Part shown: piece by piece, positions 695 through 33,894 of the stretch
How positions within the stretch are numbered: position 1 is the first letter of the stretch
Layout of the letters: every line of letters starts with the position of its first letter
NCBI RefSeq assembly: GCF_006345805.1
Contig: NC_043000.1
Span: 11,904,001 to 11,968,000, forward strand
From: Octopus sinensis
Taxonomy: Eukaryota
Direction of reading: 5' to 3'
Length of the DNA: 64,000 nucleotides
The notes under the pieces: model-generated
The model's database searches: none
Seen by the model: the letters and a program-made list of their open reading frames with translations, nothing else
Told to the model about the DNA's origin: nothing
Made by a program: the position numbers and the translations under genes

Positions 695-2557
695 GACACA
701 CACACACGCACAAACACACACATACGTTAGACTGTCCCACACACACGCACAAACACACACATACGTTAGACTGTCCCACACACACGCACAAACACACACA
801 TACGTTAGACTGTCCCACACACACGCACAAACACACACATACGTTAGACTGTCCCACACACACGCACACACACACACATACGTTAGACTGTCCCACACAC
901 ACGCACAAACACACACATACGTTAGACTGTCCCACACACAAACACACACATACGTTAGACTGTCCCACACACACGCACAAACACACACATACGTTAGACT
1001 GTCCCACACACACGCACAAACACACACATACGTTAGACTGTCCCACACACACGCACAAACACACACATACGTTAGACTGTCCCACACACAAACACACACA
1101 TACGTTAGACTGTCCCACACACAAACACACACATACGTTAGACTGTCCCACACACACGCACAAACACACATACGTTAGACTGTCCCACACACACGCACAA
1201 ACACACACATACGTTAGACTGTCCCACACACACGCACAAACACACACATACGTTAGACTGTCCCACACACACGCACAAACACACACATACGTTAGACTGT
1301 CCCACACACACGCACAACCACACACATACGTTAGACTGGTCCACACACACGCACAAACACACACATACGTTAGACTGTCCCACACACAAACACACACATA
1401 CGTTAGACTGTCCCACACACACGCACAAACACACACATACGTTAGACTGTCCCACACACACGCACAAACACACACATACGTTAGACTGTCCCACACACAC
1501 GCACAAACACACACATACGTTAGACTGTCCCACACACGCACAAACACACACATACGTTAGACTGTCCCACACACAAACACACACATACGTTAGACTGTCC
1601 CACACACGCACAAACACACACATACGTTAGACTGTCCCACACACACGCACAAACACACACATACGTTAGACTGTCCCACACACACGCACAAACACACACA
1701 TACGTTAGACTGTCCCACACACACGCACAAACACACACATACGTTAGACTGTCCCACACACAAACACACACATACGTTAGACTGTCCCACACACAAACAC
1801 ACACATACGTTAGACTGTCCCACACACACGCACAAACACACACATACGTTAGACTGTCCCACACACACGCACAAACACACACATACGTTAGACTGTCCCA
1901 CACACACGCACAAACACACACATACGTTAGACTGTCCCACACACACGCACAAACACACACATACGTTAGACTGTCCCACACACACGCACAACCACACACA
2001 TACGTTAGACTGGTCCACACACACGCACAAACACACACATACGTTAGACTGTCCCACACACAAACACACACATACGTTAGACTGTCCCACACACAAACAC
2101 ACACATACGTTAGACTGTCCCACACACACGCACAAACACACACATACGTTAGACTGTCCCACACACACGCACAAACACACACATACGTTAAACTGTCCCA
2201 CACACACGCACAAACACACACATACGTTAGACTGTCCCACACACAAACACACACATACGTTAGACTGTCCCACACACACGCACAAACACACACATACGTT
2301 AGACTGTCCCACACACAAACACACACATACGTTAGACTGTCCCACACACACGCACAAACACACACATACGTTAGACTGTCCCACACACACGCACAAACAC
2401 ACACATACGTTAGACTGTCCCACACACACGCAAACACACACATACGTTAGACTGTCCCACACACACGCACAAACACACACATACGTTAGACTGTCCCACA
2501 CACACGCACAAACACACACATACGTTAGACTGTCCCACACACACGCACAAACACACG
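695..2557. repeat. Minisatellite, 39-bp and 33-bp units (CATACGTTAGACTGTCC plus CA-rich linker), about 50 copies
   Basis: catacg recurs at 721 and 760 (39 bp) and at 916 and 949 (33 bp); core nearly invariant. Confidence 0.97.
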
Positions 2558-2724
2558 CGCATAAATATACAGAGAACACACTCACACTTCGCTCCACAAG
2601 CACATAGTTGTTCATAAACACACACAGACATATACGCATACACATGCGCGCTCTCATGCATACACATACGCACGCTGAGATAGTCTTCATACTCACACGT
2701 GTGCTTGTACACACATTTATAAAT

Positions 2725-3422
2725 ACGCTTTGATTGTTCTTTGGTTTCAGGCTGGTAGTGATGAACCCAGCTTTCGTCCATAGTAATGAAACGAGCAAGA
2801 AAATTCTCTTCATCGGCTTCAAACAGTTCCAGATTGCTCGTGGACAAAGTGCACCTGGTGCGTTTCTGTTCAGGAGTCAAAAGTCGAGGGACCCACCTTG
2901 CAGAAACCTTTGAGAACCCAAGTTGTTTTGTCACAATGTTGTCTGCTCTTTCAGTTGAGATGACCACTCTCTCGGCTATCTGACGACATGATATTCGACG
3001 ATCTTGCATTATCATACCAAGAGCAAGGTCAATGTTGTCCTCGGTGGTTGCAGTTGGAGGCCTTCCTGGTGTTGGATCATCTTCCAAACTCCCCCTGCCA
3101 CGCTGGAATTTATTTACCCAGCGTTTGACTGTTGCATATGAAGGAGCATTGTCTGTTAAGGTCCTCACCATATCTTCATGGATTTCTGATGGAGCCATGC
3201 CTTTCAAATGAAGGTACTTTATGATAGTACGATATCAGTTTTCTCCATTTTCCATGTAACCTCGACACTTGTTTATTCAAAATTCTGCAAAGAAAACAAA
3301 AATCAGAATCATGAAAATGAGCAAGAATACTCCAAAAAGACTGTACTTACCAGGAAAAAATGTTTCAGCTACCTAGCAGCCCCGTTGCTAGGCTAGGCTC
3401 AAAAGTTTTCATACACCCCTCG
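2725..3422 (-). mobile_element. 3'-truncated mariner transposon (5' TIR plus N-terminal half of transposase)
   Basis: Translation has HTH, WVPRLL and FITMDESW (first catalytic Asp); ATG at 3248 followed by a 1-nt frameshift (MEKT/YRTIIKYLHLKG); terminus CGAGGGGTGTATGAAAACTTTTGAGC with TA at 3423-3424. Confidence 0.92.
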
Positions 3423-9955: not shown

Positions 9956-9976
9956 TACTATATATATATATACTTT

Positions 9977-10290
9977 ATTATTAATAAAGCTGCAAAAACA
10001 TCACAAAAATATCGCAAAAAACTGCTACTCAGAGTTTCACGTTCCAGTTCGTTGGACAGTTTAGATTGAGAATGGAACAAAATAAAATTTGTATGTATAA
10101 AAAAACCATACAAACTTTAGTTTGTTCTACTCTCAATCTAAACTGTCTGACGAACGCGAAGGTGAAACTCTGAGTAGCAGTTTTCAGTGACATTTTTGTA
10201 ATGTTTTTGTAGCCTTAATTTATTACTCTACCCCCGATATTCGAGTACTACTTTTCCCCACTTTGTTTCGCATTTATGCTTACCTTGGTA
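9977..10290. mobile_element. Inverted-repeat, HHR-bearing non-coding element (Penelope-like pLTR or retrozyme type)
   Basis: Arms about 9977-10095 and 10107-10225; HHR motif in each arm; (TA)n on both sides. Confidence 0.7.
10140..10183 (+). ncRNA. Type-I hammerhead ribozyme motif
   Basis: AAACTGT-CTGACGA-ACGCGAAGGT-GAAA-CTCTGAG-TA-GCAGTTT; 7-bp stem I, stem III, GUA cleavage triplet; weak stem II. Confidence 0.75.
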
Positions 10291-10299
10291 TATATATAT

Positions 10300-10360
<61 letters not shown>

Positions 10361-10443
10361 TAGGAAACATGTATTTTTGTGGTTGAAACCTTTTGGATTA
10401 ACTAGTGCTAGAGTGAGCCATATAGTGACCACTCTCTTATATT

Positions 10444-10484
<41 letters not shown>

Positions 10485-31150: not shown

Positions 31151-31210
31151 TATAAATATATATATATATATATATATATACGAGAAAAAAGCAACAAGAA
31201 TGGATTAGTT

Positions 31211-31301
31211 TTTCAGTACAATTGTTTCATACGAAGACAAGCTTTATTAAAAGCGGCAAATATTGCAGCAAATACAAGTGTCCCGTACTCATCAGCCAAA
31301 A
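31211..31301 (-). ncRNA. Type-I hammerhead ribozyme with extended stem II
   Basis: Mirror copy of 31575-31665; core intact. Confidence 0.75.
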
Positions 31302-31574
31302 CACATATGAGTTCTCCAAGCATCCTAGTGGGTGAGGCTACACCCATGAAGTATCGGAGATAGTTCTATAAAAAGCAAATTTAGGTTGTAAGCAGACTTC
31401 CAAAGTTCTCTAATGATGATGCACAAGCTTTTTAAAGCCTGTTATAAGACTGTGCATCATCATTAGAGAACTTTGGAAGTCTGCTTACAACCTAAATTTG
31501 CTTTTTATAAAACTATCTCCGACACTTCATGAGTGTAGCCTCACCCACTAGGATGCTTGGAGAACTCATATGTG

Positions 31575-31665
31575 TTTTGGCTGATGAGTACGGGATACTT
31601 GTATTTGCTGCAATATTTGCAGCTTTTAATAAAGCTTGTCTTCGTATGAAACAATTGTACTGAAA
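31575..31665 (+). ncRNA. Type-I hammerhead ribozyme with extended stem II
   Basis: TTTTGG-CTGATGA-GTACGGG...TTCGTAT-GAAA-CAATTG-TA-CTGAAA; palindromic ACAATTGT stem III. Confidence 0.78.
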
Positions 31666-31813
31666 AACTAATCCATTCTTGTTGCTTTTTTCTCGTTTAT
31701 AATCACCCCACATTATTGTATGGTTAATACCATATAGTTTTCTGGTGCATCTAAGTTAAGTACTGCATTCAAGTGAATTATTGAATAGAACTCACTTGAA
31801 TCTTAATTGCTTT

Positions 31814-31865
<52 letters not shown>

Positions 31866-32006
31866 TATGAGAGAGTAACCACTATGTGGTCGACTCTAGT
31901 GCTAAAAATAGATCCACTATGGTATAGCCACTAAAAGTTGTTTCCAAGGAGAAATAAAACAACATTTAACGTGGGGCAAGTGAAAAATAACGAAAAAATA
32001 GATTAA

Positions 32007-32079
32007 CCCTGGACAATTGTTTCATTATTAATGTAAATGCAATTTTTACTTACACAACATCCATAAGTCATCAGCAGGA
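32007..32079 (-). ncRNA. Type-I hammerhead ribozyme with extended stem II
   Basis: Mirror copy of 32761-32833. Confidence 0.75.
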
Positions 32080-32296
32080 GTTTGTCTTAAATACAATTTA
32101 TTAAATCGCTCGTTAAATTTCGATGCAGCGCCAAATACACGTGCGGTTCAATCAATTGTATTAGCAGCTATGATTCAAATTCTCCCGCCAAAAGTGTGAT
32201 AAGACTTCTGGAAACGAATACCGCATAAAATATTTACTGCAGCATAATTAAATTTATAAATGAGGGTGAAAAATTTGATATTAATTTAATAATGCC

Positions 32297-32501
32297 TATT
32301 TCTTTATTACCCACGAGGGGCTAAACATAGAGGGGACAAACAAGGACAGACATAGGTATTAAGTCGATTACATCGACCCCCAGTGCGTAACTGGTGCTTA
32401 ATTTATCGACCCCGAAAGGATGAAAGGCAAAGTCGACCTCGGCGGAATTTGAACTCAAAGCATTTCGCCCGGCGTGCTAACGCTTCTGCCAGCTCGCCGC
32501 C
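32297..32501 (-). mobile_element. SINE family A inserted in the HHR element
   Basis: TSD TTAATTTAATAAT(G/A)CC. Confidence 0.92.
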
Positions 32502-32760
32502 TTAATTTAATAATACCATCAATTTAACACCAAGTGGCTTGATGGTATTATAAAATTAATATCAAATTTTTCACCCTCATTTATAAATTTAATTATACTG
32601 CAGTAAGTATTTTATGCGGTATTCGTTTCCAGAAGTCTTATCACACTTTTGGCGGAAGAATTTGAATCATAGCTGCTAATACAATTGATTGAACCGCACG
32701 TGTATTTGACGCTGCGTCGAAATTTAACGAGCGATTTAATAAATTGTATTTAAGACAAAC

Positions 32761-32833
32761 TCCTGCTGATGACTTATGGATGTTGTGTAAGTAAAAATTG
32801 CATTTACATTAATAATGAAACAATTGTCCAGGG
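32761..32833 (+). ncRNA. Type-I hammerhead ribozyme with extended stem II
   Basis: TCCTG-CTGATGA-CTTAT...ATAAT-GAAA-CAATTG-TC-CAGGG; GUC triplet. Confidence 0.78.
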
Positions 32834-33074
32834 TTAATTTATTTTTTCGTTATTTTTCACTTGCCCCACGTTAAATGTTGTTTTATTTCTCCTTGGAAAC
32901 AACTTTTAGTGGCTATACCATAGTGGATCTATTTTTAGCACTAGAGTCGACCACATAGTGGTTACTCTCTCATATTTATGTATAAATTTGTATTGTATCC
33001 CTGGTTTTTATGTGCTAAGCCACTTGGTGTTAAATTGATGGTATTATTAAATTAATATCAAATTTTTCACCCTC

Positions 33075-33170
<96 letters not shown>

Positions 33171-33494
33171 CACACACACACACACACACACAAATACACA
33201 CATACATCCATATACATATATATATACAAATACATATAAACATGCTTATATCTATGTGTATTTGTGTGTGTATATGTGTGTGTGTGTGTGCGTGCGTGTA
33301 TCATTTGCATGTCTCTGGAGCTTTATTTATTTGAATAGCACAATTTTTAATGTGGTATAATACATCCATTGCATGAACCAATTGTTCTCAAGCGCTACTC
33401 CACAAAGAGTATCTTCGGCGAGCCGTGGATTTTAAAAACTGATTTAAAGCTTCAGAAAATCAAGAGGGTCTCGGAAAACATCTTATTGTCTGCT

Positions 33495-33535
33495 ACTGAC
33501 TGAAGAGGCGAACTCACGCCGAAACAGTGTCTAGT
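33495..33535 (+). ncRNA. Minimal type-I hammerhead ribozyme motif
   Basis: ACTGA-CTGAAGA-GGCG-AACTCA-CGCC-GAAA-CAGTG-TC-TAGT; perfect stem II, intact core, bulged stem I. Confidence 0.7.
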
Positions 33536-33894
33536 TCGTTGACGTCACTTGAAGCACGTCTCAATGTGTTTTTACACAAGTGTATGTAGATGTGTATAAA
33601 TATAAACAAACTTATATTTGTTTTTATTAGAGGCGTCGAAATGTATATCGTACGATACAAGCAAGAAGATATTTATTTCAAACGCAGTATTGCTGTTAGA
33701 ACAGCAGAAATAATGGGTGAATTACCCTTACAAGGTGGAAAAAGTTGTCAACAAACAGCGAAGGGACTCGAACCCACATCCAAGACTTCGGCTAAGTGCT
33801 TTACCATTAAGCAAAACTGCCCGCTGACAAATTCATGTTTTCTACGAAGACAATATCGCACAGCAAATGTCTTAGACGTTCTATTGTGAAAGAA

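Follow-up and report, generated by a model that had tools for sequence, protein, structure and literature searches.

The locus at 31862..33083 of the window, i.e., the whole stretch of 64,000 nucleotides of Octopus sinensis DNA analyzed in this study, very probably represents one insertion of a non-autonomous Penelope-like element (PLE), or non-LTR retrozyme, that is dispersed in the genome and has no ORF. The insertion is composed of two head-to-head arms of a 496-nt unit bearing a hammerhead ribozyme, and the arms end at two different fixed 3′ sites of that unit. This head-to-head pair was probably inserted by PLE-type double priming on one RNA. A retrozyme-like hammerhead unit of ~496 nt made by reverse transcription had been proposed in the initial annotation of this DNA, and our results support that proposal.

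The unit was numbered from u1 at 32541 and spans 32541-33036 (496 nt). The annotated period of 496 nt was confirmed, as the stretch 32539-32597 was found again at 33035-33093. Compared base by base, the match begins at 32539/33035 and has 1 mismatch (32552/33048) in the next 45 nt, followed by (TA)n; the overrun past one unit is ~47 nt, to 33083, after which the TA run follows. The long arm (32539..33083, plus strand) comprises 1.1 units, runs from u495 via u496 to u47 and has its 3′ end at the long fixed site. The short arm is on the minus strand and is the reverse complement of u477-u496 plus u1-u444, split by a SINE at 32294..32501. Its 3′ part (31862..32293, about u7-u444) ends at the short fixed site and abuts (TA)n, and its 5′ part (32502..32540) covers u477-u496 and then u1-u19. 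The inverted arms 31862-32296 and 32544-32978 (435 nt) were 98% identical, and past the SINE the left arm resumes at 32502-32540, the reverse complement of 33017-33055 with 100% identity. Both arms are 5′-truncated and meet at a head-to-head junction with a 2-nt overlap (32539..32540). The 13-mer previously read as a junction sequence is, as had been stated, also present in the inverted arm (33017(+) and 32528(-)). The 33036/33037 "junction" itself is arbitrary, and the biological landmarks of the unit are the predicted cleavage site at u288 and the fixed ends at u~444 and u~47. The insertion is flanked by (TA)n target sequence on the left (31817..31861), which is also the end of a neighboring hammerhead PLE insertion at 31175-31816, and on the right (33080..33166).

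The SINE, which is very abundant in the window, inserted later and in the left arm only, between two copies of a 13-bp target-site duplication (32281..32293 and 32502..32514), in agreement with the initial annotation. Given this one-sided SINE and the 6 differences between the two arms over the 420 sites compared, an assembly mirror was excluded and the inversion is genomic, as had been concluded before. Among the DNA sequencing contigs searched for coverage across the locus, none spanned it. The unit was correctly described as lacking an ORF: no frame of at least 90 aa was found within it, and the only frames touching it start at 33034 and 33056 and read the TA run. The related tail noted at 10400-10443 belongs to a separate, diverged and 5′-truncated short arm of the same lineage, which starts near 10360 and lies between TA runs (10360..10446, plus strand).

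Scanning of the whole 64-kb window with a hammerhead pattern confirmed the two hammerheads that had been annotated, which are of type I, just one on each strand of the locus, while an Rfam scan of the window returned 0 matches at the gathering score. The plus-strand copy (32761..32833) has its core at 32766 and a predicted cleavage site after 32828 (u288), and the minus-strand copy (32007..32079) has its core at 32074 and a predicted cleavage site after 32012. The hammerhead possesses a stem I of 4-5 bp, a long stem II and a stem III of 2 bp with a palindromic loop, a form said to require a dimer (PMC4209133). The base of stem II is usually mismatched throughout the family and is C-U at the window locus; the hammerhead of an axolotl retrozyme is described with U-U at this position (PMC7229834). 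The core was intact in 38 of 47 copies. When the proposed structure was placed on 46 sequences, 95.7% of the cells were paired and 8 of 19 pairs showed two-sided change, values that are inflated by related sequences; 0 of 500 shuffles reached this level, and slid controls gave 24-46%. In this alignment (A1), four rows of the sibling family B were shifted by 2 columns on the 3′ side of stems I and III. The isolated motif folded no better than shuffles (z -0.48). Self-pairing of the monomer gave a z of -2.39 for the linear form, and its circular fold, with 62% of bases paired, was equalled by 3 of 40 shuffles. With only one hammerhead per strand, the window locus would not itself release a monomer. 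Copies arranged head to tail, so that one strand bears two or more hammerheads, are absent there and present elsewhere in the family (L016 and L029). A further hammerhead-like core was noticed by eye at 33490-33540 of the window (CUGANGA, a 4-bp stem II, GAAA and GUC); it failed the stem I filter of the scans.

The unit is a dispersed repeat. A search of the 2.72-Gb assembly gave 2198 first-look candidates, 40 of which were scored, and exact genome matches numbered 102 for one 30-mer of the unit and 105 for a 23-nt hammerhead pattern. In total, 114 loci were mapped: 42 chosen by BLAST score (set 1), which favors long copies, and 38 (set 2) and 34 (set 3) from the exact 30-mer list, both of which were therefore chosen by a motif in u13-42. 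Six additional score-picked loci were kept out of the locus counts. The GC content of the unit was 31.7%. Of the tandem arrays and circular permutations that the annotation had suggested looking for, the former were found to the extent of up to 2.4 tandem units in the largest copy, although most copies are dispersed and contain 0.1-1.4 units; random permutations were not found, as the 3′ ends are fixed and the 5′ ends vary. At two loci (L246 and L276), the whole two-armed insertion occurs twice in succession within 0.4-1.4 kb, either by local duplication or as an assembly duplicate. In contigs of four sequencing runs, the hammerhead and the tail of related subfamilies were represented, and one contig of 523 nt turned back on itself; since the runs may be DNA and contigs cannot show circles, these observations were not counted as evidence. 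Our search of the literature on octopus and cephalopod retrozymes did not find this 496-nt family; subscription papers, Repbase/Dfam and supplements were outside that search, so that the family may already be catalogued. The supplements of the PLE and retrozyme papers cited here may also contain related families.

Several neighboring and sibling elements were observed. The insertion at 31175-31816, whose TA end was the target of the 496-nt element, is a second hammerhead PLE-type insertion, also head-to-head, with cores at 31295(-) and 31581(+), GUA sites and a tail of ~115 nt. Its family has many copies of 92-97% identity, and no PLE ORF was found in the 30 loci fetched. A third inverted hammerhead insertion, at 9960-10290 of the window, has a core near 10147 and a tail of ~75 nt; its relatives sit in TA runs near the GIY-YIG PLE loci L065, L079 and L090. 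Family B (L104-L133; L121:860-1576) shows about 75% identity in the tail region, has a different middle and carries its own hammerhead with compensatory stems, including a U4C core variant in some copies. Family E (L214-L243; L223; L095:5960-6420) has a hammerhead unit of ~513 nt, up to about three tandem units and a 100-nt tail, and one of its copies was found beside an intact 781-aa PLE, at the TA-rich 5′ junction of the latter. Another abundant non-autonomous family (L134-L163; L102:4480-4665), which we take from its 5′ end to be Helitron-like, bears an internally inverted piece of the tail region of a relative. Finally, a frame of 274 aa at 2410-3234 (-) of the window resembles a fragment of a mariner transposase in its motifs.

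Across the 114 loci, the 3′ ends of the arms were found at two sites ~100 nt apart, the short one at u~444 and the long one at u~47 in the following register, and the 5′ ends were scattered. Apparent 5′ starts at u1 were an artefact of split alignments. Both fixed ends are preceded by a predicted hairpin plus the motif CUCAU(A)UUUAU. Head-to-head pairs were present at 76 loci, and the other 38 were single-armed and 5′-truncated. Of the 76 pairs, 67 combined one long and one short end, 9 combined a long end with an odd one and 0 had the same end twice. The long+short and long+odd counts were 25 and 4 of 29, 22 and 4 of 26, and 20 and 1 of 21 in sets 1, 2 and 3, respectively. Because sets 2 and 3 were picked by the u13-42 motif, short/short pairs were hardly possible in them, but long/long pairs could have appeared. 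The same pairing rule was observed in the family of the 31175-31816 insertion (the 31439 family; 9 of 10 pairs, 1 odd) and in family E (17 of 20 pairs, 3 odd), for both of which the query favored long arms; their tails are ~115 and ~100 nt, respectively. (TA)4 was found near 62 of 67 set-1 ends and at 6.7% of random window positions, with a test window that takes in the AT-rich end of the element itself. The window locus is a typical long+short pair. Thus, its overrun is the last part (47 nt) of the ~100-nt tail between the short and long ends (32985..33083), a family-wide feature that corresponds to a signature described for PLEs (PMC8557442, PMC3846280, PMC11167929), and the earlier reading of the overrun as the footprint of a circular template did not hold. 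A conserved, multi-helix structured region at 32904..33078 (u364-u538) spans both fixed ends, shows two-sided changes between subfamilies in 7 of 38 predicted pairs, and is likely to serve as the recognition element for the reverse transcriptase. A strict rule of one long and one short end was not found in the literature that we searched on twin-priming and self-priming models of PLE inversion, with subscription papers and supplements outside the search.

It is possible, though in our judgment not the better supported course, that the template was a covalently closed RNA circle of 496 nt and that, with PLE-type priming, reverse transcription went around it more than once. In set 1, which favors long copies, 46 of 67 arms cross a first cleavage site and 3 of 67 a second, and the family reaches the 2.4 tandem units mentioned above. 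Tandem units were no more diverged than same-register arms (3.1 vs. 3.1%, 10 paired loci). In addition, mussel and coral retrozymes are described as accumulating as circles (PMC7229834), and a circular model has been proposed for PLE tandems (PMC4209133). The window locus, however, requires a linear template of just 562 nt, and the PLE studied in vitro used unprocessed RNA (PMC11167929). The crossing of cleavage sites and the tandem divergence fit a circle, an uncut multimer and end-to-end template jumps equally, and comparison of same-register with other-register divergence did not separate a circle from a young multimer. The 3 arms that exceed two cleavage sites do need multimeric, circular or jumped templates. 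The overrun at the window locus does not in itself show a second round on a circle.

The distribution of 5′ stops also bears on the template. Enrichment of these stops at x283-308, just inside the cleaved 5′ end, speaks against a circle. In this bin, which was chosen after set 2 had been seen, 15 of 40 arms at risk stopped, vs. 13 of 109 in four neighboring bins (pooled p 8e-4), a comparison that leaves out the 335-360 bin (6/29 in set 3); in set 3 alone, the counts were 6 of 20 vs. 8 of 61 (p 0.086). The cluster at u283-308 may instead represent stalling at the ribozyme fold, and two further clusters of stops, at u192-204 and u357-369, lie close to predicted stems. Moreover, two arms (L026/L330 and L315/L336) end at a GUH cleavage site, which likewise speaks against a circle. 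They account for 2 of the 9 odd ends and for 2 of 105 pattern matches. The remaining 11 of 13 matches to the cleavage-end pattern were base variants that read on, and a control pattern 3 nt earlier gave 0. Both of these arms are flanked by other repeats with 1-2 nt of microhomology, and a later deletion could give the same end. The two ends are suggestive of an in vivo footprint of cleavage, and together with the x283-308 stops they are signs that point to cut linear RNA.

The O. sinensis genome contains intact PLE frames of 775-883 aa, in which a reverse transcriptase (RT) domain is followed by a GIY-YIG domain; their CxxxxCxxC linker presumably places them in the Neptune clade. A search for the GIY-YIG family listed 147 matches from 5029 first-look candidates. 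Comparison of 62 GIY-YIG stretches, a small part of these candidates, with the unit revealed no homologous 3′ repeat. Two candidate helpers were rejected. The 70-nt match to the unit at L102 is a piece carried by the different, Helitron-like family described above, and the hammerhead element upstream of an intact PLE at L095 belongs to another non-autonomous family, of which only 1 of the 30 loci fetched adjoins that PLE. The ORF-bearing PLE families examined have tails of ~35-40 nt, as read by eye, not 100 nt. A young PLE family represented at L093, L094, L095 and other loci has many identical-scoring GIY-YIG domains and several open frames of 781 aa, and its 3′ repeat seems to contain a degenerate hammerhead and a tail of ~40 nt.

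The unit itself has no ORF for RT plus GIY-YIG and is not an autonomous PLE. Its copies display fixed 3′ ends, variable 5′ truncation, partial tandems, an inverted 5′-truncated copy, a tail at one end and (TA)n, all of which are features of non-autonomous PLEs. Most PLE insertions are described as 5′-truncated pLTRs (PMC8557442; bioRxiv 10.64898/2026.07.22.740005), and retrozymes are proposed to derive from pLTRs (bioRxiv 10.64898/2026.07.22.740005), so that the unit could be read not as a self-contained element but as a mere pLTR, all that remained of an autonomous PLE after it had been severely truncated at the 5′ end. We consider this unlikely, given that u496 runs into u1 seamlessly with a period of 485-510 nt across copies. 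In the masked flanks of the 42 set-1 loci, furthermore, only SINEs were common next to the unit, and PLE protein matches were found in the flanks of just 4 of the 114 loci, at least a few hundred bases from the unit and not common to the loci. The element is therefore the unit itself.

As for the origin of the two arms, 28 of 67 pairs have a short arm that extends >20 nt further 5′ than the long arm although the tail is partly or, in 23 of these pairs, completely missing from it. Neither arm contains the other in these pairs, so that each arm must be primed on RNA. Divergence was 3.3% between the arms of one locus, 3.2% between tandem units and 9.0% between loci. Rare alleles were shared within loci ten to twenty times more often (0.27-0.53 vs. 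0.024%), and in only 11 of the 20 loci tested was no other sequence closer to an arm than its partner; alleles common to both arms could also result from gene conversion between the arms or from two RNAs of one source locus. In 16 of 67 pairs, the 5′ stops lie no more than 12 nt apart, vs. 4.5 expected (permutation, 0/20000). Taken together, the pairing rule, the shared rare alleles and the shared stops suggest that one RNA was likely primed twice.

Fold-back, in which the first cDNA or an antisense transcript primes its own copying, was proposed for rotifer Penelope elements (PMC3846280) and would account for the palindromic nature of some junctions and for the 16 of 67 pairs that start at the same place. 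As an explanation of the inverted arm in this family it is improbable: the 28 non-nested pairs contradict it, it could survive only for the same-start subset, and it leaves unexplained why the second arm always ends at whichever fixed site the first arm does not use. The fixed outer ends and the long inverted repeat formed by the arms might be cited for a foldback element with terminal inverted repeats or for a MITE-like DNA transposon. Such a reading was refuted by the variable 5′ ends and can be virtually dismissed, as arm lengths and central junctions vary by locus, 38 of 114 loci are single-armed and 5′-truncated, the two ends are not mirror images owing to the 100-nt tail, and copies form head-to-tail tandems.

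Double priming on one RNA has a counterpart in LINE-1 twin priming, in which two primers from the two target strands are used on one RNA and the products are joined by microhomology, yielding non-overlapping 5′ inversions and a poly(A) end. Different from LINE-1, the two arms here start from two fixed internal sites and are copies of one and the same 3′ region. We infer that a PLE protein was the motor of the insertion, with two primings on one RNA, joining by microhomology and a later SINE insertion. A Penelope-like RT/GIY-YIG protein would nick both target strands within (TA)n and insert the ORF-less 496-nt RNA in trans. Two cDNAs would then be primed on the same RNA, each from its own internal start site, and their ends joined by microhomology, and the SINE would have entered the left arm afterwards. 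The RNA pool was likely mixed, with hammerhead-cut linear monomers as well as multimers or circles, and the weak stem III would favor cleavage in tandem (dimeric) transcripts. A more specific version, plausible but still tentative, is that a PLE dimer holds one retrozyme RNA at two docking sites, each formed by a hairpin plus CUCAU(A)UUUAU, and that one cDNA is primed per target strand.

Similar to animal non-LTR retrozymes, which were defined by Cervera and de la Pena (2020), who named PLEs as candidate helpers (PMC7229834), and which were linked to pLTRs through distribution and phylogeny by Li, Clavereau and Pollet (2026; bioRxiv 10.64898/2026.07.22.740005), this family is based on an ORF-less unit of a few hundred nt with one type I hammerhead each and low GC content. 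It also shares with them head-to-tail copies and co-occurrence with autonomous PLEs (PMC7229834). Different from these retrozymes, however, it consists mostly of dispersed head-to-head pairs of 0.1-1.4 units with fixed ends in (TA)n. At 496 nt, the unit is longer than the 170-400 nt of the tested retrozyme circles (PMC7229834).

Insertions of PLEs are described as partial tandems that have an inverted 5′-truncated copy next to them, lie in (TA)n targets and often bear a tail of 30-40 bp at one of their ends (Craig et al., 2021; PMC8557442), and the same structure, with self-priming proposed, was reported by Arkhipova et al. (2013; PMC3846280). The family studied here resembles EN+ PLE insertions in its partial tandem, inverted copy, one-end tail, microhomology junctions, (TA)n and hammerhead (PMC3846280; PMC8557442), and differs from them in lacking an ORF and in its tail of ~100 nt vs. 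30-40 bp. The one-end tail is strict here, with 0 same-end pairs among 76, whereas the PLE papers word it as "often" or "optionally" (PMC3846280; PMC8557442). Similar to non-autonomous Chlamys PLEs such as MRC1, the family is non-autonomous, with head-to-tail multicopy insertions comparable to those that contain pLTRs in Chlamys (PMC8557442). The Chlamys elements resemble their autonomous partner at the 3′ end and are described without canonical hammerheads (PMC8557442), whereas the unit has a hammerhead and no partner among the 62 stretches compared.

A close parallel for the start sites is Poseidon PAc of Anolis, whose protein, a predicted dimer, cuts and extends both strands at AT-rich DNA in vitro and starts reverse transcription at two sites within the RNA, which lie downstream of the hammerhead and bound the tail (Frangieh et al., 2024; PMC11167929). 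In the in vitro data described for Poseidon PAc, the start site did not differ between the strands and none of the reads ended at the cleavage site (PMC11167929), whereas the pairs found here imply coupled starts and two arms end at that site.

As an element, the 496-nt unit is ordinary. How the tandem-plus-inverted structure of PLEs is assembled and which machinery moves animal retrozymes are treated as open questions in PMC8557442, PMC11167929 and PMC7229834. Since its copies are short and numerous and show the complete PLE signature, the family provides countable constraints on the mechanism of insertion: each strand has a single start site, neither arm is a copy of the other, and stop points are shared. 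These constraints favor double priming on one RNA over fold-back. If the dimer model is true, the long/short rule would be a genomic record of coupled double priming, and the arms ending at GUH would be fossil traces of germ-line cleavage by the hammerhead. Animal retrozymes would then be tied to the Penelope machinery by mechanism, not by kinship alone.
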